A stretch of DNA of 64,000 nt, taken from a virus. Location of the stretch: IMG/VR virus record IMGVR_UViG_3300035670_000026, positions 1 through 64,000 of that record; one strand, given 5' to 3'. The notes under the pieces are model-generated. The model did no database searches and was not told where the DNA came from. It was given only the letters and a program-made list of their open reading frames with translations. This document shows positions 2,496 through 10,545 of this stretch, in pieces (the first letter of the stretch is position 1; each line of letters starts with the position of its first letter). The position numbers were made by a program, and so were the translations under genes.

Positions 2496-3055
2496 TGTCT
2501 TTCGATTATAAAGCTTACCTAAAAAATAACCCATTGTTAGAGGAATTACCTAAAGGACAGTGGATTGACCTTGATAAAAAAGAAACCGAAGAATATTCTG
2601 ATGATATTTTTGGATTAATTGACACAGCATATGCGTCAATTGGCGGTAATCTAAATTATAAAAACGCAAGTGACGTAACAGGTGCGGAAGGTGATGCCGA
2701 TTATGAAGTAATCGATATAGACGGTGATCCTGAACCAGATGCTGTGCTTGTTTCTAAAAGAAAAGAAGCCGGAAATAAATTAACTGCTTTAGGTCACGAT
2801 GGAAGCTCCGATGCCAAATCAAAATCACTTAATAAACAAGCAGATATGCTTAAACAACCCGGTAATTATATTGAAGTTTCTGGTCGTATTAAAGATATTC
2901 TTTTAGGTAAAGGTGTTCCTGTAGTTACAGATAAATCCACTATTGAAAAAGTAATGGGTAATAAAGCTATTGATATCCAAGATGATGGTTCTTATACTCG
3001 CTATATTGGTGGAAAGCAAACCCAAAAAATCCTTCTTGGAAAACCTTTAGCATAA
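2495..3055 (+). CDS. Hypothetical protein, possible capsid cargo
   Basis: 186-aa ORF; ATATTTATA motif at 2470; N-terminus MSFDYKAYLKNNPLLEE resembles the cargo-type leaders. Confidence 0.6.
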   Translation: MSFDYKAYLKNNPLLEELPKGQWIDLDKKETEEYSDDIFGLIDTAYASIGGNLNYKNASDVTGAEGDADYEVIDIDGDPEPDAVLVSKRKEAGNKLTALGHDGSSDAKSKSLNKQADMLKQPGNYIEVSGRIKDILLGKGVPVVTDKSTIEKVMGNKAIDIQDDGSYTRYIGGKQTQKILLGKPLA

Positions 3056-3118
3056 AATTTGGAGGAGCGAAATTTCGTTCGTATATTTACCATGTAATAA
3101 GAAATAAAAATAAAGGTT

Positions 3119-3430
3119 ATGATTAAGATGTGTATTAAAACAGTAGAAAATTTGGTTGAAGAATTTAATACTGGTCAAATTTCAGAAGAAAATTTTTATA
3201 AAGCACTCCAAAACACCGCTAAAATGGGTTTGGATAATGTTCGTCAACACAAGATTTGGAATATGAAGGATGAACTTCGTCCTGGTAATATGGTTTTTGT
3301 TGATCATAAGCGAGTTGCTGGTCGTCAATTCCGAGTTAAAGAAGTTAAGCGTGTAAAAGTAATTGTTGTTAATCCTAATAATGAGCATGAAAGTTTTATT
3401 GTTCCACTTAGTTTAGTTAAAAAAGCGTAA
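3119..3430 (+). CDS. Hypothetical protein (SH3-like beta-rich C-terminus)
   Basis: ORF follows promoter 3059 and a TAAAGGTTATG start context. Confidence 0.6.
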   Translation: MIKMCIKTVENLVEEFNTGQISEENFYKALQNTAKMGLDNVRQHKIWNMKDELRPGNMVFVDHKRVAGRQFRVKEVKRVKVIVVNPNNEHESFIVPLSLVKKA

Positions 3431-3432
3431 TT

Positions 3433-3627
3433 ATGAGTTTTAAACAATCTCTACTAGATGCAATCGAAGATAATCAAATGGAAATGGTTATGCCTTCTCG
3501 AGAATATAAAGAAGGTGAAATCGTATGGATGAAAGGTTATACTCAAGCACTTAAAGATATGCTTGAAGATTACGATAATGACATCGAAGACGCTATTCAA
3601 AAATCACTAACATTTTCACTTAATTAA
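3433..3627 (+). CDS. Hypothetical protein
   Basis: Tightly packed ORF in the operon. Confidence 0.55.
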   Translation: MSFKQSLLDAIEDNQMEMVMPSREYKEGEIVWMKGYTQALKDMLEDYDNDIEDAIQKSLTFSLN

Positions 3628-3628
3628 T

Positions 3629-3859
3629 ATGGAAGATTTTATCTCACAAAACGAATTCCAATTAGAAATGTCTGCAATTAAAGAAGCAAAAATTAATGCT
3701 GACTGTGACCATATTTTGACTGAAGCTGATCGTTATGGTCTTCAGTTGGAGGTAGTTTGGTCTGCTTTTAAACATAAAGAAGATTTTCCAACTGCTTCTT
3801 TTCTTGAATGCCTACAAGTAGGTGCAAAAGATTGGGATGTTATAACTAAGTTTGGATAA
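3629..3859 (+). CDS. Hypothetical protein
   Basis: Tightly packed ORF in the operon. Confidence 0.55.
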   Translation: MEDFISQNEFQLEMSAIKEAKINADCDHILTEADRYGLQLEVVWSAFKHKEDFPTASFLECLQVGAKDWDVITKFG

Positions 3860-3894
3860 TAAAAAAAAAGGTTATATATTTATATAACAGAAAT

Positions 3895-3980
3895 ACCGCC
3901 TTGGTGAAATAGGTAGACACGAGGGACTTAAAATCCCTTGGGCAGTGATGCTCGTGCCGGTTCGATTCCGGCAGGCGGTA
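3895..3980 (+). tRNA. tRNA-Leu(TAA)
   Basis: Acceptor ACCGCCT/AGGCGGT, AGGGA-CT-TAA-AA-TCCCT, long variable arm, GGTTCGATTCC. Confidence 0.95.
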
Positions 3981-4002
3981 CAAAGATTGTTCTTTAAAAT
4001 AT

Positions 4003-4076
4003 GGTTCGGTAGCTCAGCTGGATAGAGCAACAGCCTTCTAAGCTGTGGGTCACAGGTTCGAATCCTGTTCGAATCA
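4003..4076 (+). tRNA. tRNA-Arg(TCT)
   Basis: ACAGC-CT-TCT-AA-GCTGT; canonical D and T arms. Confidence 0.95.
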
Positions 4077-4081
4077 CTAAA

Positions 4082-4155
4082 GCGCTTATAGCTCAGTTGG
4101 TTAGAGCATCCGACTCATAATCGGCAGGTCCTAGGTTCAAGCCCTAGTAGGCGCA
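4082..4155 (+). tRNA. tRNA-CAT (Ile2-lysidine type or elongator Met)
   Basis: CCGA-CT-CAT-AA-TCGG; body resembles bacterial tRNA-Ile2. Confidence 0.9.
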
Positions 4156-4230
4156 CCTAAATTTGGAGATATAAAATATTTATATTATATTACCATTATA
4201 GTTCTTTGAAAATATTAAATACCCAAAAGT

Positions 4231-4560
4231 GCCCCGATAGGATAACCTTTTTGCAATAACCTGCTGAAATTGCATTAACGGAGAGGTTCGCAAGCAGGTG
4301 AGGGTTCCCATTGGATATGAAAGTCTGGTGAGAAATAGGTTGGTTTAGTTCCCGTTATGTTTTTAGTAACATTATCGGGGCCGCTAAAAACGAGCGGAAG
4401 TTAAATTCAAAGTATTAAAGCAAAGTCAACACAATAGCTTTGTTCTCACAGCTTATTAGTAATACACGTCGGGAGGTGTAGCTAGTAAGGGAAAACGAAT
4501 AGGACGTCGGGTTCTAATCGCCAGATAGAAATATCATATTGCCGTGCTTAGAAATAAGCC
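4231..4560 (+). ncRNA. Unassigned structured RNA between tRNAs
   Basis: GCCCCGATA (4231) pairs with TATCGGGGC (4373-4381); internal TGCAAT/ATTGCA and ACCTGC/GCAGGT helices; has its own promoter (4163) and boxA-like site (4201); no credible ORF. Confidence 0.55.
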
Positions 4561-4565
4561 AAAAT

Positions 4566-4636
4566 TGACGGTTCGTCTAACGGCAGGACGCTTGGCCCCG
4601 ACCCAAGAAATGTAGGTTCGATCCCTACACCGTTAA
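4566..4636 (+). tRNA. Atypical tRNA, anticodon CCG (nominal Arg) with C33 and a Gln-like body
   Basis: TGACGGT/ACCGTTA acceptor, CTTGG-CC-CCG-AC-CCAAG, GTAGG-TTCGATC-CCTAC. Confidence 0.75.
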
Positions 4637-4666
4637 CAAAGTTAGCTACAGACTTAAATGTGGAAT

Positions 4667-4751
4667 GGAAGATTGGCAGAGTGGTCGATCGCGGCAGTCT
4701 TGAAAACTGTTGTACCGCAAGGTACCGTAGGTTCGAATCCTACATCTTCCG
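4667..4751 (+). tRNA. tRNA-Ser(TGA)
   Basis: GCAGT-CT-TGA-AA-ACTGT, long variable arm, G73. Confidence 0.95.
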
Positions 4752-4773
4752 CTAAACTTAAAAATAAATAAAC

Positions 4774-5031
4774 ATGAATGAAGTTACAGTTACAGTACTG
4801 CCACATCCAGTGACAATGTTCTTTATAGGAGCAATGCTATTAGGTATAGTTTTACTGTTAATCGAATTTTCCAAAACCCGTCGTGAGGTTCGGGAAACTA
4901 AAAAAGAATTTAATACTATGAATAAACATATCATTGATGTTAAATCCTACACAGAAAAATCAATTCAAGAAGTTTCTCGTAAAGTAGATTCAAGAATCGA
5001 CAAAGCGCTTGGAAATTTAAAAAAAGATTGA
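4774..5031 (+). CDS. Small membrane protein with coiled-coil tail
   Basis: N-terminal hydrophobic helix followed by a coiled coil. Confidence 0.6.
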   Translation: MNEVTVTVLPHPVTMFFIGAMLLGIVLLLIEFSKTRREVRETKKEFNTMNKHIIDVKSYTEKSIQEVSRKVDSRIDKALGNLKKD

Positions 5032-5068
5032 TATATTTATATAACACAATTAATAATTAAAAACAAAG

Positions 5069-5230
5069 ATGAAAAAAACCTTTTTCGCACTTGTAGCAAT
5101 TGCTACCCTTGCTTCATGTACTAATAATACCGAAGCCACTTTAACTGATTCAACTTCGTGTGATACATGTGTTGTTGATTCAACTGTAGTTGATACGCTA
5201 TGTGTTGACACTACAGTAGTAGCCGAGTAA
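5069..5230 (+). CDS. Small lipoprotein (53 aa, not in the ORF track)
   Basis: MKKTFFALVAIATLASC: signal peptide II with LASC lipobox; follows promoter 5009. Confidence 0.75.
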   Translation: MKKTFFALVAIATLASCTNNTEATLTDSTSCDTCVVDSTVVDTLCVDTTVVAE

Positions 5231-5242
5231 TCGGCTTAAAAT

Positions 5243-5315
5243 GCCCGCGTAGCTCAATAGGTAGAGCAATTGATTTGTAATCAATAGGTTGTAGGTTCGA
5301 TTCCTATCGCTGGCT
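5243..5315 (+). tRNA. tRNA-Thr(TGT)
   Basis: ATTGA-TT-TGT-AA-TCAAT cloverleaf. Confidence 0.93.
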
Positions 5316-5339
5316 CAAAAAAATGTTCTTTAACATAAT

Positions 5340-5412
5340 GCGGTAGTAGCTCAGTTGGTAGAGCATGACCTTGCCAAGGTCAGGGTCGCTGGTTCGAACC
5401 CAGTTTGCCGCT
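5340..5412 (+). tRNA. tRNA-Gly(GCC)
   Basis: TGACC-TT-GCC-AA-GGTCA; GCG acceptor start, U73. Confidence 0.95.
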
Positions 5413-5417
5413 CAAAT

Positions 5418-5489
5418 GCGAATATCGTATAATGGTTATTACTCCTTCCTTCCAAGTAGGAGATGTCGGTTCGATTCCGGCTATTCGCT
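5418..5489 (+). tRNA. tRNA-Gly(TCC)
   Basis: CCTTC-CT-TCC-AA-GTAGG; GCG acceptor start, U73. Confidence 0.92.
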
Positions 5490-5596
5490 CAAAAAGCTTT
5501 TTAAAATTTTTTTAAAATAGCTTGGATGTTTGAAATTTCGTTCGTATATTTACGGTATAGAAATTGAAAAACAAAACGTTCTTTAAATTATTGAAA

Positions 5597-6431
5597 TATC
5601 CATTCAACGCAAGTTGATAAAAGATATTGGCCGTCTATGGTCGTTAAATAAACCTCGAAAGGGGGATAAAGTGAATTACATGACAAAGTAGTTTGCGGCT
5701 TCGAAAGGAGCTCGAGTAGACAAGCGAGATATCATTTAGTCTAAAGTAGTGAGGGTAACTCCGTAGCGAAACGATTGAATGACCTAGCGATGTGGGTCGT
5801 TAGGTTGAGTCCGGAAGGACAATAAGAATAACTCGTAGAATATATGTAAGAAGTATTTCCATCCAGATTTACAATTGCGTTATTCAATATCAGAGGGTAC
5901 TTAAAGCCGAAAGGCATGTAAATGTACAGGTGGTGCTGTTATTTACCTTGACCTTAGTCTACCAAGACATGAGTCATGAAGTAATCTTAAAGTATGGAGG
6001 TAGGGATATCTCAGAGAGTAGTTTAGTATTTTCTCGCTCAAAAGGTGAGAAAGCTAGGTTGGTAAGCCACTACTTTCAATCATCCACGTCAAAAACTTTG
6101 CTATTTGGAATGCAAATTCAAAACTAACAAAGCAAAAGTGCTTACCAGTCACGGACGAAAGATGCCTACATAGTAGTGAGTTGTTCACTGCCACTAGAGG
6201 TTGCAAGCCAATAGTGATTCGTTTGAAAAATTTGTAACCTCGGCAGGGGTTTATCAGACCGCAAGTTTGAACAGATAGAGTATAGCGAGAGTAGTCCAAT
6301 ACAAGTGACTTAAAGAGTGGTTCACTTAAATAACCGGCATTGTTAGGATACAAGTCAAAAGCTTGTGGATAAGAAGGGAATAAATAATCCGACAAAAGAT
6401 CTAACATATAAACGTATAATCTCAGCGTTTT
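5597..6431 (+). ncRNA. Large ornate ncRNA, probably GOLLD family (about 830 nt)
   Basis: Higher GC than flanks; many hairpins (CCTCGAAAGGGG, TCCGGAAGGA, GCCGAAAGGC, terminal AAACG..CGTTT); own promoter (5522) and boxA (5578); size and tRNA-array context match GOLLD; boundaries approximate. Confidence 0.65.
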
Positions 6432-6498
6432 AAAAATTTACGCAAGTTGGACATTTTAGAGGATCGTTTCCTCTATTGCGACAAAAATAAAATTTAAC

Positions 6499-6507
6499 AT
6501 ATTTATA
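6499..6507 (+). promoter_or_regulatory. ATATTTATA putative phage (late-type) promoter upstream of the leader ORF
   Basis: Same motif recurs before many structural and cargo genes. Confidence 0.6.
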
Positions 6508-6533
6508 ATAAACATTTTTTAAATTCGATAACA

Positions 6534-6620
6534 ATGACACGCCATAGTATATATAACCTTCAAATGAACATTTGGTTTGCACCAGTGAAGGAGGATACCT
6601 TGCCGTGCTTTGTTGTATAA
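6534..6620 (+). CDS. Putative attenuator leader peptide MTRHSIYNLQMNIWFAPVKEDTLPCFVV (28 aa)
   Basis: 19 of 20 amino acids in 28 codons; 3' end overlaps the antiterminator strand. Confidence 0.8.
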   Translation: MTRHSIYNLQMNIWFAPVKEDTLPCFVV

Positions 6621-6658
6621 TGTGAAAATAAAAAACACTATGAAAAACAAAGCCCGGC
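6602..6658 (+). promoter_or_regulatory. Antiterminator helix
   Basis: GCCGTGCTTTGTT (6602-6614) is complementary at 12/13 positions to AACAAAGCCCGGC (6646-6658), which contains the terminator 5' arm. Confidence 0.8.
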
Positions 6659-6681
6659 CCTAAAAAGCCGGGTTTTTTTTT
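6651..6681 (+). terminator. Intrinsic terminator (attenuator) upstream of the tRNA array
   Basis: AGCCCGGC-cctaaaaa-GCCGGGTT followed by a T-tract. Confidence 0.9.
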
Positions 6682-6683
6682 GA

Positions 6684-6695
6684 GTTCTTTGACAT
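6684..6695 (+). promoter_or_regulatory. boxA-like antitermination site GTTCTTTGACAT
   Basis: Similar to rrn boxA (GCTCTTTAACA); GTTCTTT copies at 3989, 4201, 5325, 5578, 6684, 8274. Confidence 0.65.
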
Positions 6696-6709
6696 GTTGG
6701 AAAAAAGAC

Positions 6710-6784
6710 GACCTCATAGCTCAATTGGTTTAGAGCACTATACTTTTAATATAGGGGTTTCGAGTTCGAGTCTCGATGGGGTCA
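6710..6784 (+). tRNA. tRNA-Lys(TTT)
   Basis: CTATA-CT-TTT-AA-TATAG. Confidence 0.93.
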
Positions 6785-6861
6785 CAAAAAAATCGTAGCG
6801 TACCGAAAGGGAAAAAGATGATTTAGCCAATCATCACAGGTTAAGCGATATCCTGTAATTT

Positions 6862-6934
6862 CCCACCTTAGCTCAGTTGGTAGAGCGCTTGCCTTACATG
6901 CAAGATGTCGCTGGTTCGAGTCCAGCAGGAGGGA
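6862..6934 (+). tRNA. tRNA-Val(TAC)
   Basis: CTTGC-CT-TAC-AT-GCAAG. Confidence 0.93.
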
Positions 6935-6941
6935 CAAAAAT

Positions 6942-7023
6942 GCCAGTATCGCATAGCGGCAATTGCAGCTGACTGTAAATCAGCTCCCTTACGGGTTCGG
7001 AGGTTCGAGTCCTTCTGCTGGCA
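6942..7023 (+). tRNA. tRNA-Tyr(GTA)
   Basis: GCTGA-CT-GTA-AA-TCAGC, long variable arm. Confidence 0.92.
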
Positions 7024-7033
7024 CAAATAAAAT

Positions 7034-7106
7034 GGATAGGTAGCTCAGTTGGTAGAGCGTCGGCCTGAAGAGCCGAGCGTCGGGGGTTCAAATCCCTCTC
7101 TGTCCA
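7034..7106 (+). tRNA. tRNA-Phe(GAA)
   Basis: TCGGC-CT-GAA-GA-GCCGA. Confidence 0.93.
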
Positions 7107-7112
7107 CAATAT

Positions 7113-7186
7113 GGAGATATAGCTCAGTTGGTTAGAGCACTTGCCTGATACGCAGGGGGTCATAGGTTCGAGTCCTATTTTCTCCA
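7113..7186 (+). tRNA. tRNA-Ile(GAT)
   Basis: CTTGC-CT-GAT-AC-GCAGG. Confidence 0.93.
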
Positions 7187-7192
7187 CTTAAT

Positions 7193-7265
7193 AGTGATAT
7201 AGCTCAATGGTGAGAGCAGATGCCTTATACGCATCAGGTTACGAGTTCGAGTCTCGTTATCACTA
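7193..7265 (+). tRNA. tRNA-Ile(TAT)
   Basis: GATGC-CT-TAT-AC-GCATC. Confidence 0.9.
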
Positions 7266-7270
7266 CAATT

Positions 7271-7354
7271 GGAAGGTAAAGCAACCAGGGTGTTGTCACC
7301 GCCTGCTAAGCGAGTGGTACTTTCGAGTATGAATTTCGATTATTCTGCCTTCCG
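7271..7354 (+). tRNA. tRNA-Ser(GCT), atypical D and T arms
   Basis: GGAAGGT/GCCTTCC, G73, CGC-CT-GCT-AA-GCG, long variable arm. Confidence 0.8.
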
Positions 7355-7398
7355 CTAAAATTTAAAAACTATGTAAAAATATTTATAAAAAAACAGCT

Positions 7399-7851
7399 AT
7401 GCAATTCAAGACTCTCCGAAACAGAAAAGACATTGATCTGGTTGAATACGTTCGGGACTACATCAATGAAAATCCACAAGTTGAAATCCTTATAGGATGC
7501 GACTCACAAAACCATATAGACACTACAGTATATGCTACAGTGGTTGCTCTATACAAACCACAAGCTGGTGCCCATGTTCTTTTCTGTAAAGAGGTTACTC
7601 AAACAGAAAAAGTTCGTCAAGTTAGATTGATGAATGAAGTTTGGAAATCAATTGAAGTTGCCGAATTACTAAAAAATTCAGGTTTACCAAGAGCAAAATA
7701 TATCGATATTGACCTTAACCCAGATAAAAGATTTAAATCAAATGAAGTTCTAAGAGCAGCAGTTGGTTTAGTTGAAGGAATGGGTTACAGCGTTAGATAT
7801 AAATCATTAGGTGCATTAGTAACTACAGCGGCTGATGCATTGGTAAAATAA
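7399..7851 (+). CDS. RNase H-like YkuK (DUF458) family protein
   Basis: IGCDSQ, RLMNEVWKS, IDIDLN and AAD motifs. Confidence 0.8.
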   Translation: MQFKTLRNRKDIDLVEYVRDYINENPQVEILIGCDSQNHIDTTVYATVVALYKPQAGAHVLFCKEVTQTEKVRQVRLMNEVWKSIEVAELLKNSGLPRAKYIDIDLNPDKRFKSNEVLRAAVGLVEGMGYSVRYKSLGALVTTAADALVK

Positions 7852-7855
7852 TCAA

Positions 7856-7929
7856 GGTCCCTTAGCTCAACGGATTAGAGCACTTCGCTACGGACGAAGG
7901 GGTTAGGAGTTCGAATCTCTTAGGGACTA
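7856..7929 (+). tRNA. tRNA-Arg(ACG)
   Basis: CTTCG-CT-ACG-GA-CGAAG. Confidence 0.93.
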
Positions 7930-7934
7930 CAAAT

Positions 7935-8005
7935 GGTCCTATGTCCGATTGGCAAGGTGAAGCTCTGCAAAAGCTTTTATGTTGGTTCAAATCCAACTAG
8001 GACCT
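7935..8005 (+). tRNA. tRNA-Cys(GCA)
   Basis: AAGCT-CT-GCA-AA-AGCTT, U73. Confidence 0.9.
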
Positions 8006-8011
8006 CAATAC

Positions 8012-8075
8012 ATGGGTGTGGTGAAATGGTATCATTACGGTCTCCAAAACCGCAGTTCAGGGTTCGAATCCTTGC
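8012..8075 (+). tRNA. tRNA-Trp(CCA)
   Basis: CGGT-CT-CCA-AA-ACCG; G73 plus encoded CCA; 3' coordinate approximate. Confidence 0.88.
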
Positions 8076-8125
8076 ACCCGTGCCAACTATCCGATGTGTT
8101 TACCGAGCTAGGTCGGTTTTAACAT

Positions 8126-8199
8126 GGTGGATATAGCTCAATCGGGAGAGCGTTGGTTTGTGGAACCAAAGGTAGTGGGATCGAAACCCACTATTCACC
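8126..8199 (+). tRNA. tRNA-His(GTG)
   Basis: G-1/C73; TTGGT-TT-GTG-GA-ACCAA. Confidence 0.92.
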
Positions 8200-8297
8200 C
8201 AAAAAATTTCACCAAAAATTTGGAGAAGTAAAAGATTAGTCGTACATTTACGACATAGAATTAAGAACAAGTTGTTCTTTGACGTATTGGAAAAAAT

Positions 8298-8379
8298 GCC
8301 TTGGTGGTGGAAATGGTAGACACAGCGGTCTTAGAAACCGTAGCTTTATCGCTTGCGAGTTCGAGTCTCGCCCGAGGTA
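8298..8379 (+). tRNA. tRNA-Leu(TAG)
   Basis: GCGGT-CT-TAG-AA-ACCGT, long variable arm. Confidence 0.93.
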
Positions 8380-8382
8380 CAA

Positions 8383-8582
8383 ATGAAACACTTCCTACAG
8401 AAGACAGATTAGCACTGTTGAAAGGAACCTTGGCTTACGGGAGTAATTACCATAGTAAGTTACAAAATGACCCAAGGTACTCTGTGATGGACCCTGCTCT
8501 GTGGTGCACTCATAACAGGTGGACAGTAAACTATGTCCAGTCAAATCCACAACTACGGTGAGCGTAGAGGAAGCAGTTTCAT
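8383..8582 (+). ncRNA. Unassigned ~200-nt structured RNA
   Basis: Closing helix ATGAAAC..CTTCCT / AGGAAG..GTTTCAT; internal CCTTGG/CCAAGG, CTTAC/GTAAG, TGGACA/TGTCCA. Confidence 0.6.
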
Positions 8583-8586
8583 ATTC

Positions 8587-8658
8587 GTCTTGGTAGCTCA
8601 GTGGTAGAGCTAGCGGCTGTTAACCGCTCGGCCGGAGGTTCGAATCCTCCCCAGGACG
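8587..8658 (+). tRNA. tRNA-Asn(GTT)
   Basis: AGCGG-CT-GTT-AA-CCGCT, G73. Confidence 0.93.
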
Positions 8659-8666
8659 CAAAAAAT

Positions 8667-8738
8667 GGCCCGTTCGTCTATCGGTTAGGACACCAGGTTT
8701 TCAACCTGTAAAGACGAGTTCGACTCTCGTACGGGCTA
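8667..8738 (+). tRNA. tRNA-Glu(TTC)
   Basis: CAGG-TT-TTC-AA-CCTG. Confidence 0.93.
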
Positions 8739-8742
8739 CAAA

Positions 8743-8836
8743 AATTATATCCTTAGGTACCCATACAGCGGTGAGATGGGCTAAGTTAGATACAATTCCT
8801 CGGAGCTGGGAGTAGAATGCCTAATGTGATATGATT
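8743..8836 (+). ncRNA. Unassigned ~94-nt structured RNA
   Basis: AATTATATC/GATATGATT and TTAGGTA/TGCCTAA closing stems with internal hairpins. Confidence 0.5.
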
Positions 8837-8847
8837 TAAAAATAAAT

Positions 8848-8922
8848 TGCGGGGAACTAGAGCTGGTGCACTGACGAGTCTCATAAGCTCGGACTAGGTG
8901 GGTTCGATTCCCTCCCCCGCAA
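8848..8922 (+). tRNA. tRNA-Met(CAT), initiator-like acceptor, atypical D arm
   Basis: TGCGGGG/CCCCGCA; CGAGT-CT-CAT-AA-GCTCG. Confidence 0.82.
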
Positions 8923-8928
8923 CTATAT

Positions 8929-8999
8929 TTTCCTCTCGTCTAATGGCAGGACAAGTGGTTTTGAGCCACTGAATCGGAGTTCGAATCTCTGGGGGAAAA
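8929..8999 (+). tRNA. tRNA-Gln(TTG)
   Basis: AGTGG-TT-TTG-AG-CCACT; U1-A72. Confidence 0.9.
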
Positions 9000-9004
9000 C
9001 AATT

Positions 9005-9077
9005 GGGGTTGTAGCTCAACTGGCTGAGCGCTTCCTTTGCAAGGAAGAGGATGAGGGTTCGAATCCCTTCTGCTCCA
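9005..9077 (+). tRNA. tRNA-Ala(TGC)
   Basis: CTTCC-TT-TGC-AA-GGAAG; G3-U70. Confidence 0.93.
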
Positions 9078-9080
9078 CAA

Positions 9081-9157
9081 TTGGTAAGTTCCTCACACCT
9101 AGGGTTAGTGAATAATTTAAAGGAGGCATGTAAATACACAAGGTTACAACTTACCAA
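9081..9157 (+). ncRNA. Unassigned ~77-nt structured RNA
   Basis: Perfect 10-bp closing stem TTGGTAAGTT/AACTTACCAA. Confidence 0.45.
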
Positions 9158-9161
9158 ATTC

Positions 9162-9233
9162 GGTCCATTGGTGTAATGGCTAACATGCAGCACTGTCTAT
9201 GCTGCGCTACGAGTTCGATTCTCGTATGGACCG
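9162..9233 (+). tRNA. tRNA-Asp(GTC)
   Basis: CAGCA-CT-GTC-TA-TGCTG, G73. Confidence 0.9.
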
Positions 9234-9235
9234 CT

Positions 9236-9363
9236 AAAGAAAAAGTAGTGAAGCTGTAATTGAGAAGTAGAGTGTATTAATTGCTGAAAAAGGGTTTATA
9301 GTAAGTAGGCGTCACTCATTGCACTCAATCAGAAACCCTGAAAGACCCGAAGCTTTTTCTTTT
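9236..9363 (+). ncRNA. Unassigned ~128-nt structured RNA
   Basis: AAAGAAAAAG/CTTTTTCTTT closing stem; AGGGTTT/AAACCCT internal helix. Confidence 0.45.
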
Positions 9364-9365
9364 CT

Positions 9366-9438
9366 CGGGAAGTAGATCAGTTGGTAGATCGCCTGGTTTG
9401 GGACCAGGAGGCCGCAGGTTCGAGTCCTGTCTTCCCGA
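9366..9438 (+). tRNA. tRNA-Pro(TGG)
   Basis: CCTGG-TT-TGG-GA-CCAGG; CGG acceptor start. Confidence 0.95.
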
Positions 9439-9500
9439 CAATAATTTTTCCAATATGTCTTTGTAATTGGTTAATATTTATAATAAAAAAACCAATTATT

Positions 9501-9671
9501 ATGAAAAATATAACTAAAGAACAATTTTTAGGTATTGTTAGACATACCTTAACTTTCGTAGGTGGTATTTTACTTACTCAAGGTATAATTGATGCTTCGC
9601 TTTTAGGTGAAGTTTCTGGTGCTATTGTAACATTAGCTGGTGCTATTTGGTCTGTAGTAAGTAAAAAATAA
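9501..9671 (+). CDS. Putative holin (two TM helices)
   Basis: Real start at ATG 9501 (the upstream extension overlaps tRNA-Pro); GIVRHTLTFVGG motif; adjacent to the endolysin. Confidence 0.65.
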   Translation: MKNITKEQFLGIVRHTLTFVGGILLTQGIIDASLLGEVSGAIVTLAGAIWSVVSKK

Positions 9672-9886
9672 TGAAAGATTTTATAGTTAAAATGTTTTCC
9701 AATAATGAAGGTACTTCTTCTAAAAGAGTACTTGGAGCTATTGGATTACTTTCTATGATAGTATTTATGTTTTTACACCCTACTAGTGATATAGCTGTTG
9801 AAACTGTTGGTTATGTTACTATAGCTTATGGTGTAGGAACAGTAGTTGAAAAATTTGCTAAAAAAGGTACTAATCCTGAAATATAA
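9671..9886 (+). CDS. Small membrane protein (holin/antiholin-like)
   Basis: SSKR motif plus two TM segments, in the lysis cassette. Confidence 0.55.
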   Translation: MKDFIVKMFSNNEGTSSKRVLGAIGLLSMIVFMFLHPTSDIAVETVGYVTIAYGVGTVVEKFAKKGTNPEI

Positions 9887-10545
9887 TGTCTATACCAAAA
9901 ACAACATTAGTTGAGTTTCCTGAAAATCAGTATTATAAAACTCAATTTAAAAAAAATCAAATTTATTTACACCATACTGCGGGAAATGCTGATGCAAAAA
10001 ATGTTTTTCATGGATGGAAAAGTGATAAAGGAAGAATAGGAACTTGTGTCTCTATATCAGGTAAAGGTAAAAATACGATTGATGGAGAAATAATACAAGG
10101 TTTTTCATCTAAATTTTGGGCTTATCATTTAGGTGTTAAAACTAAACATTTTCAAGCTATGAAATTACCTTATAAAGAGTTAGATAAATTTTCTATAGGT
10201 ATTGAAATTTGTAATTGGGGACAATTAACTTTAAAAGATGGTAAATTTTATAATTATGTAAATCGTGAAGTTCTAGCTAGTGAAGTTTATGAATTATCTA
10301 TACCACATAGAGGATACAAGTATTACCATAATTACACTGATGCTCAAATTGAATCTACAAGACAACTTTTAGTTTATTGGGGTAAATTATATAATATTCC
10401 TTTAATATATAATGAAGATATTTTTGGTTTAACTCCAAGAGCATTTAAAGGAGAAGCAGGAATATTTACACATAATTCAGTTCGACCTGATAAAGTAGAT
10501 ATATATCCTCATCCTAAATTAATTGAAATGTTAAAATCGTTATAA
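9886..10545 (+). CDS. N-acetylmuramoyl-L-alanine amidase (Amidase_2) endolysin
   Basis: IYLHHTAG, WAYH, SIGIE, THNSVRPDKVD. Confidence 0.85.
   Translation: MSIPKTTLVEFPENQYYKTQFKKNQIYLHHTAGNADAKNVFHGWKSDKGRIGTCVSISGKGKNTIDGEIIQGFSSKFWAYHLGVKTKHFQAMKLPYKELDKFSIGIEICNWGQLTLKDGKFYNYVNREVLASEVYELSIPHRGYKYYHNYTDAQIESTRQLLVYWGKLYNIPLIYNEDIFGLTPRAFKGEAGIFTHNSVRPDKVDIYPHPKLIEMLKSL

Follow-up and report, generated by a model that had tools for sequence, protein, structure and literature searches.

The enterobacterial amino-acid attenuators (ilvGMEDA for Ile/Val/Leu, thr for Thr/Ile, trpL, hisL, leuL and pheL) combine a short leader with alternative 1:2, 2:3 and 3:4 helices and a terminator before the regulated genes, and the codons of their leaders match the controlled product. 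Attenuators of pheST and other aminoacyl-tRNA synthetase genes, as well as T-boxes, tie the decoding apparatus to the supply of charged tRNA, and rrn-type Nus/boxA antitermination places a boxA ahead of stable-RNA genes. A spacer within the tRNA array of a phage genome resembles all of these systems, and its boxA, a putative Nus site, has the extended form seen in Bacteroidota rRNA and tRNA operons. On the evidence of sequence and folding models, we consider it quite probable that the spacer is a ribosome-mediated leader-peptide transcription attenuator gating a phage tRNA operon. Comparison of relatives supports this reading, put forward in an earlier note on this DNA, in its leader ORF, its competition between antiterminator and terminator, and its tRNA codons. 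We infer the translation of the ORF, the effect of a stall on termination and the physiological signal; the freshwater Bacteroidota phage probably transcribes 18 tRNAs only when their codons are decoded slowly. A leader ORF with start and stop, a terminator before tRNA-Lys, mutually exclusive helices and matching codons were all found, and the main departure from classical leaders is the absence of runs of repeated regulatory codons.

The window, i.e., the whole stretch of DNA analysed, comprises the first 64,000 nucleotides of a 149.8-kb IMG/VR record. ARAGORN and Rfam locate 26 tRNAs between 3895 and 9439, all on the plus strand, and these are every tRNA in the record. The array, which the earlier note began at 6710, actually starts at 3895, and the element lies inside it with eight tRNAs upstream; the other features that the note had described (the ORF, the 12/13 pairing, the terminator, the boxA-like site and the promoter-like box) lie where it placed them. 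The features of the element and the tRNAs behind it are as follows.

6498-6507, plus strand: putative promoter -7-like box CATATTTATA, called from the sequence; the next ATG is the leader start at 6534
6528-6544, plus strand: segment 1, the 5' strand of the predicted anti-antiterminator, which pairs with 6601-6616 when no ribosome is present (MFE and centroid folds)
6534-6620, plus strand: leader ORF of 28 codons plus TAA, with an ATG start and the stop at 6618-6620
6602-6614, plus strand: segment 2, common to the predicted 1:2 helix and the 2:3 antiterminator (complementarity, folds and masking model)
6646-6658, plus strand: segment 3, with segment 2 (antiterminator) or 6667-6676 (terminator) as alternative predicted partners
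6649-6681, plus strand: intrinsic terminator with a 10-bp GC-rich stem, an 8-nt loop and nine T; hairpin of -15.6 kcal/mol
6684-6694, plus strand: boxA-like GTTCTTTGACA, 2 nt after the T run, matching 10/11 positions of GYTCTTTAANA, a gamma-proteobacterial consensus (PMC5725501)
6710-9439, plus strand: the putatively gated array of 18 tRNAs, tRNA-Lys first with its start at 6710 (ARAGORN, Rfam)

A GOLLD RNA (Rfam RF02032) at 6014-6428 (273.9 bits, E 6e-78) separates the two tRNA blocks, leaving 70 nt to the promoter-like box. Gating by the element is possible only for the 18 distal tRNAs after 6710, not for the upstream eight. Their order is Lys, Val, Tyr, Phe, Ile(gat), Ile(tat), Arg(acg), Cys, Trp, His, Leu(tag), Asn, Glu, Met, Gln, Ala, Asp and Pro, and a 150-aa ORF lies among them at 7399-7851. 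A promoter-like site and a second boxA at ~8230-8293 also fall inside this block, and the last eight tRNAs may be transcribed independently from there. Metatranscriptome contigs from four runs cover GOLLD strongly and a few span 6230-6596, 6567-6692 and 6646-6787; such contigs carry no end, strand or level information, and DNA carry-over is possible. Several further observations concern the surrounding RNA genes. The GOLLD region (5597-6428) has a promoter-like box and, at 5578, a boxA copy ahead of it, and its 5' half (5597-6013) is 86-92% identical in four related loci (L006, L015, L016 and L017). A conserved hairpin at 6441-6480 (a 7-bp GA-rich stem within a 5-bp outer stem), located after GOLLD and ahead of the leader promoter, is nearly invariant in the relatives L005 and L006; it lacks a following T run, so that a terminator function is not obvious. 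The freshwater-1 RNA model (RF02979) scores just under its threshold (70.6 bits; gathering score 72) between tRNA-Leu and tRNA-Asn at 8483-8545, and the ~400 nt from tRNA-Met to tRNA-Arg(ccg) (4160-4560) hold no credible ORF or Rfam match, with a boxA copy ahead of them at 4201.

The leader ORF uses 19 distinct amino acids, lacking Gly; its first 10 codons are all different, and its first 21 codons specify 18 amino acids. A sequence check places the promoter-like ATATTTATA at 6499-6507. The -7 boxes in this study were called with what we take to be the Bacteroidota promoter consensus, and they are therefore putative. Among the plus-strand terminator-like sites in 3000-10500, the hairpin at 6649-6681 scored best and was the sole strong one, with its 5' arm at 6649-6658, loop at 6659-6666, 3' arm at 6667-6676 and T run to 6681. 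Rfam searches found no family over 6429-6709, where the Phe and Thr leader models over the terminator were insignificant (E 0.2-0.8), and no T-box match at E<=1 in 3000-10500. A blastn search of 5400-7300 against GenBank phages left the spacer unmatched and returned tRNA matches and two huge uncultured phages at the GOLLD part. Two overlapping minus-strand ORFs (6430-6717 and 6054-6407) gave empty PHROG scans and were treated as spurious, since 6054-6407 falls inside GOLLD.

Segment 2 can form 12 of 13 pairs with 6646-6658, the exception being a U/C mismatch at 6606. The 2:3 duplex is calculated at -17.5 kcal/mol, compared with -8.5 for shuffles (z -4.6). The region is also strongly structured in unconstrained folds (z -3.35 for 6520-6690 and z -3.59 for 6429-6690), and both show the terminator together with a long hairpin that joins the ORF start (6528-6544) to the ORF end (6601-6616). 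This 1:2 helix, which the earlier note did not mention, gives segment 2 two possible partners, as in the trp attenuator. These folds and a masking model, in which the region occupied by a ribosome is unavailable for pairing, support the proposal that the antiterminator and terminator helices exclude each other. In the model, with no ribosome, the terminator has a probability of 1.0. With the ribosome anywhere from codon 21 through the stop, the antiterminator probability is 0, as was anticipated in a caveat that stalls at the last codons would still mask it; only 4 nt separate segment 2 from the stop codon, and it is therefore covered by any ribosome that has reached codon 21 or gone past it, the stop included. 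It had also been proposed that a stall at almost any codon would free the antiterminator. This holds in the model for most of codons 1-20, where the antiterminator mostly reaches 0.1-0.5 at equilibrium if pairing is confined to RNA on the 3' side of the ribosome, but not for codons 9-11, where it falls to 0.00-0.06. The terminator is slightly stabler than the antiterminator at equilibrium. Because the terminator hairpin (-15.6 kcal/mol) is close in strength to the 2:3 duplex (-17.5 kcal/mol), the outcome would be decided kinetically, and the attenuator model, as computed here, needs kinetic trapping, as classical attenuators do.

The proposed mechanism would run as follows. Transcription would begin at a Bacteroidota-type promoter near 6500, and the 28-codon leader would be translated while RNA polymerase nears the terminator. 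Without a ribosome, segment 1 would pair with segment 2 (6601-6616), the terminator at 6649-6681 would form and transcription would stop. A fast ribosome that has reached the last codons or the stop would cover segment 2, and the terminator would again form and stop transcription. A ribosome held within about the first 20 codons would instead cover or separate segment 1 and leave segment 2 free; segment 2 would then pair with segment 3 before the 3' arm of the terminator is made, and polymerase would read through boxA into the tRNA genes. Once made, these tRNAs would in turn shut the switch, a negative feedback on decoding capacity. The leader holds a codon for every downstream tRNA species, and thus a shortage of any one of them would raise transcription of the whole set.

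The codons of the leader track the downstream tRNAs. Codons 2-28 of the window leader include at least one cognate codon for each downstream tRNA species (18/18), both Ile isoacceptors being sampled via ATT and ATA (P<5e-6), whereas random 27-codon strings drawn from the phage codon usage sample 11.0 species (sd 1.6) and never more than 17 in 200,000 trials. Four of the 27 codons (ACA, AGT, ACC and TTG) are unread by downstream tRNAs, and two of these are readable by tRNAs encoded upstream. Each downstream tRNA is sampled once or twice, with no codon run; compared with the repeats in classical leaders, such sampling may make for low sensitivity to any one shortage. The match extends to the other leader families described below. 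At the anticodon level under wobble rules, coverage across 13 family representatives is 0.991 compared with 0.751 (sd 0.047) after permutation (P<1e-5), and 12 of the 13 sample all of their downstream tRNA species, in line with the claim that the leader samples the tRNAs of its array. At the amino-acid level, 98.8% of the amino acids whose tRNA is encoded within the following 2.5 kb are present in the leader, compared with 81% when permuted (P<5e-5). Conversely, the share of leader residues that have a downstream tRNA is 0.49 compared with 0.36 permuted (13 representatives). Windows of the same length from long ORFs of the same phage locus cover fewer species (combined Fisher P 7.5e-12), and codon usage in common thus fails to account for the match. 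The largest family gives a compact example: its leader is rich in Leu, Val, Ala, Asp and Glu with one Trp, and it always precedes tRNA-Asp, followed by Glu, Val, Leu, Ala and Trp.

The earlier note had called the leader pan-amino-acid. Its composition is indeed unusual: 19 distinct amino acids in 28 residues have a probability of ~5e-4 against phage protein composition and real 28-residue windows, and of 0.01 against six-frame small ORFs of the window. Other leaders are similarly diverse, with 20 amino acids in 31 residues in L015 (P ~4e-5), 19 in 32 in L086 (P ~0.004) and a diverse leader also in L106. Families before small arrays, by comparison, use 11-15 distinct residues, an ordinary or low number, and reflect in their composition the few tRNAs behind them (e.g., Asp/Glu/Val/Leu/Ala/Trp), which rules out high amino-acid diversity as a general rule. 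Thus, while 19 of the 20 amino acids do occur in the window ORF, the pan-amino-acid look is not a rule of its own and follows from the position of this leader at the head of a broad, nearly complete tRNA set.

Relatives of the locus provide the comparative evidence. We collected 80 related loci via an amidase-like gene at 9886-10545, and a degenerate pattern search added two. Four of them (L005, L006, L083 and L085) carry the spacer at ~87% identity and keep the 28-codon frame, with a stop that alternates between TAA and TGA at the same place. Across codons 4-21 these close relatives vary at five sites, all third-position and synonymous. The ORF ends vary freely, yet the 2:3 pairing of the L005 type reaches 13/13 with three G-U pairs. 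Arg and Cys codons have been lost in close relatives though tRNA-Arg and tRNA-Cys persist downstream, and the first tRNA after the unit in L085 is Phe, not Lys. As a separate observation, ARAGORN places a tRNA with anticodon TTA (ochre suppressor type) at 2799-2871 of L005, and the window has no such tRNA. In L015, L016 and L017, GOLLD is present at 87% identity and is followed at once by a tRNA with the spacer absent; the leader unit is therefore not an appendage of GOLLD. Weak nhmmer matches to the unit instead appear in L015 and L032 between tRNA-Gly and tRNA-Phe, where each unit has a promoter box, an ORF and a terminator; the boxA is the same, and the terminator sequence differs. The ORF of L015 (5960-6055) has 31 codons and all 20 amino acids, that of L032 (6539-6628) has 29 codons, and a homologous leader ORF also occurs in L107. 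The 3' end of each ORF pairs with the 5' arm of its own terminator (8 perfect pairs in L015, 11/11 in L032), and these sequences, which differ and still pair, are on the predicted helices a co-variation of antiterminator with terminator.

Scanned for the extended boxA motif, IMG/VR yielded over 119 loci and 98 distinct phage contexts. An intrinsic terminator lies within 130 nt upstream of boxA in 35 of the 98, and every one of these 35 contexts has an ATG ORF of 22-38 codons that ends 17-37 nt before the stem, an arrangement found in 7.4% of dinucleotide shuffles. The leader peptides of the 35 modules fall into 13 unrelated clusters. All modules were found via a single boxA motif, which confines the sample to phages of the Bacteroidota type. 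The search that had been suggested for short ORF plus terminator units before tRNA genes in relatives thus returned them in 35 of the 98 contexts and in 13 families. Most of the other families have a putative promoter box, either TATATTTATAA-type or the Bacteroidota TAnnTTTG box, 20-60 nt ahead of the leader ATG. Conservation of the 2:3 pairing was assessed by per-module duplex z-scores, not by aligned columns: the duplex between the ORF 3' end and the terminator 5' arm has a mean z of -2.74 against shuffles (29 modules), and the sequences involved are family-specific. In leader-only folds, the 5' part of the ORF pairs with segment 2 in nearly all families (mean z -2.3). The families therefore appear, from these predicted helices, to share the classical 1:2 / 2:3 / 3:4 layout, and L198 carries an identical G-to-A / C-to-T change in segments 2, 3 and 4 together. 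The earlier note had suggested a test of whether amino-acid diversity and helix co-variation are conserved in relatives; the co-variation is present with changed peptides, and the high diversity is not general. In four loci from three leader families (L112, L131, L142 and L198), 41-67 nt with a promoter -7 box separate the terminator from boxA, and the terminator there may contribute little to control.

The largest family, which heads Asp arrays, has conserved N- and C-terminal peptide motifs that correspond to segments 1 and 2, and both resemble terminator arms. A further feature of this family (L141:122-300:-, L142:7639-7814:+, L156:152-330:+ and others) is a conserved CCTCCTTTCTTA between the leader stop and the terminator, which is similar to the 16S rRNA 3' tail with its anti-Shine-Dalgarno region, and the ORF of the family holds a GAGGA-type stretch. 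The window leader has AAGGAGGA at 6586-6593 and lacks an anti-Shine-Dalgarno-like tail.

In the clade of the window, boxA starts 2-8 nt past the T run and would therefore be transcribed only by read-through. Six of the seven plus-strand copies of GTTCTTTRA in the 64-kb window lie within 3989-8274, before RNA genes (3989, 4201, 5325, 5578, 6684 and 8274, each just before a tRNA or non-coding RNA), and two of them occupy 21-24-nt spacers between tRNAs. These recurrent copies look like repeated, putative boxA loading sites. A repeat, TCGTAyATTTACGr...ATAGAA, was observed ~20-35 nt before leaderless boxA copies (5535-5565, 8232-8262 and L005 ~2395-2432) and may be a second promoter class for stable-RNA units. 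Among 185,579 species genomes, matches to the extended boxA motif are almost all in Bacteroidota (Chitinophagaceae, Bacteroidales, Sphingobacteriales and Saprospiraceae), after tRNAs or in rRNA leaders, and this near confinement suggests that the host of the phage is probably a Bacteroidota bacterium. Only one of 120 sampled bacterial boxA contexts has a terminator and a small ORF upstream. This context (L260, ~4280-4504) is on a 4.7-kb contig of a MAG labelled Candidatus Shapirobacteria, and its leader, which is followed by a terminator and boxA, belongs to the phage family of L112, L132 and L154; the contig is thus probably phage DNA binned into the MAG. Within this sample, the predicted leader-terminator unit is a phage feature, absent from the host rrn leaders examined.

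Other explanations of the same architecture were weighed against these data. It could sense the global state of translation (ribosome availability, elongation speed, toxins or antibiotics), with the codon match a secondary adaptation. The sampling of each tRNA once or twice with no dominant codon would suit such a sensor, as would the masking model, in which any slowing within codons 1-20 frees segment 2. However, a global sensor needs no codon set that tracks the downstream tRNAs, and the observed coverage of 0.99 compared with 0.75 permuted, together with leaders before small arrays that are built from just the amino acids of the array, makes this explanation unlikely. A role of the ORF as a functional micropeptide or a TnaC/SecM-type arrest peptide, with a terminator that merely ends a tiny gene, seems to us decidedly improbable. 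Several families do share an N-terminal Met-Lys start and a late Trp followed by acidic residues, and the promoter box between terminator and boxA in four loci of three families would fit a separate gene. The 13 peptide clusters nevertheless have no common sequence, the conserved peptide ends in the Asp-array family fall on RNA segments 1 and 2, and a micropeptide would leave the codon-to-tRNA match unexplained. Within families, variable sites are spread over the three codon positions as 28/35/41 (chi-square P 0.29), without purifying selection at the peptide level; this even spread, with no frame broken, argues for a leader and against a functional or arrest peptide. A TnaC-like arrest motif (late Trp and Asp) was dropped as a candidate, as it has no codon-position constraint and the conserved ends are RNA helices.

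Two further explanations do without a leader peptide. A switch made of RNA only, with an incidental open frame (e.g., a T-box-like sensor of uncharged tRNA, or an attenuator that binds a protein), would be in keeping with the strong structure of the region (z -3.4 to -3.6), but 6429-6709 has no significant Rfam family, and every module retains the frame, the ATG and the stop although all codon positions vary freely, so that we give it very little credence. The idea that the terminator only ends the upstream GOLLD/tRNA unit and that the ORF is a chance frame in an AT-rich spacer draws on the lack of any other terminator between the GOLLD end at 6428 and 6649, and on the ninety ORFs of at least 20 codons in 4000-10000. 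It fails to account for the GOLLD relatives L015, L016 and L017, which have no spacer after GOLLD, for the units of L015 and L032 elsewhere (between tRNA-Gly and tRNA-Phe), or for an ORF in 35/35 modules where 7% would be expected; it appears largely refuted by these comparative sequence data, and we regard it as barely credible. A ribosome-mediated attenuator remains the explanation that we prefer.

If true, this attenuator would have phage tRNAs made on demand, upon slow decoding of exactly their codons. The finding would extend the logic of attenuation from amino-acid and synthetase genes to tRNA genes, and it bears on the open question of why large phages carry tRNA arrays and how the arrays are expressed. 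It also offers a directly testable handle on ideas about tRNA arrays, which range from compensation for codon usage and degradation of host tRNAs to evasion of anticodon nucleases. A leader could predict, from its sequence only, the tRNAs of one transcription unit, and the 13 leader families offer natural variants of the switch. A broader and more doubtful proposal, which we raise tentatively, is that Bacteroidota phages run a general tRNA homeostat. Each array would stand behind a leader ORF that lists the codons of the array, and the loss of any host tRNA would switch on the replacement set, which would in turn shut the switch off, serving both counter-defence and the tuning of translation, a type of circuit that is not known for any tRNA gene. 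Mismatched codon usage, host shut-off, starvation or the anticodon nucleases of defence systems could each cause such a loss; a link between this element and anticodon nucleases is pure speculation.

Full-text literature searches, with most subscription journals outside their scope, found no leader-peptide attenuation of tRNA genes in phages or bacteria, and the element has no sequence similarity to any Rfam leader family. The described systems nearest to it each differ in a defining respect. T-boxes bind uncharged tRNA directly and have no ORF, and the pheST attenuator responds to a single amino acid and regulates a gene for a protein. The sampled bacterial boxA contexts differ in that a terminator and a small ORF lie upstream in 1 of 120, on a contig that looks like phage. 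Compared with the enterobacterial attenuators, the phage element has no codon runs and samples each tRNA about once, reaching up to 18 species in 27 codons. It is phage-borne, has a boxA past its terminator and, on the reading that we favour, would control tRNAs instead of biosynthetic enzymes.
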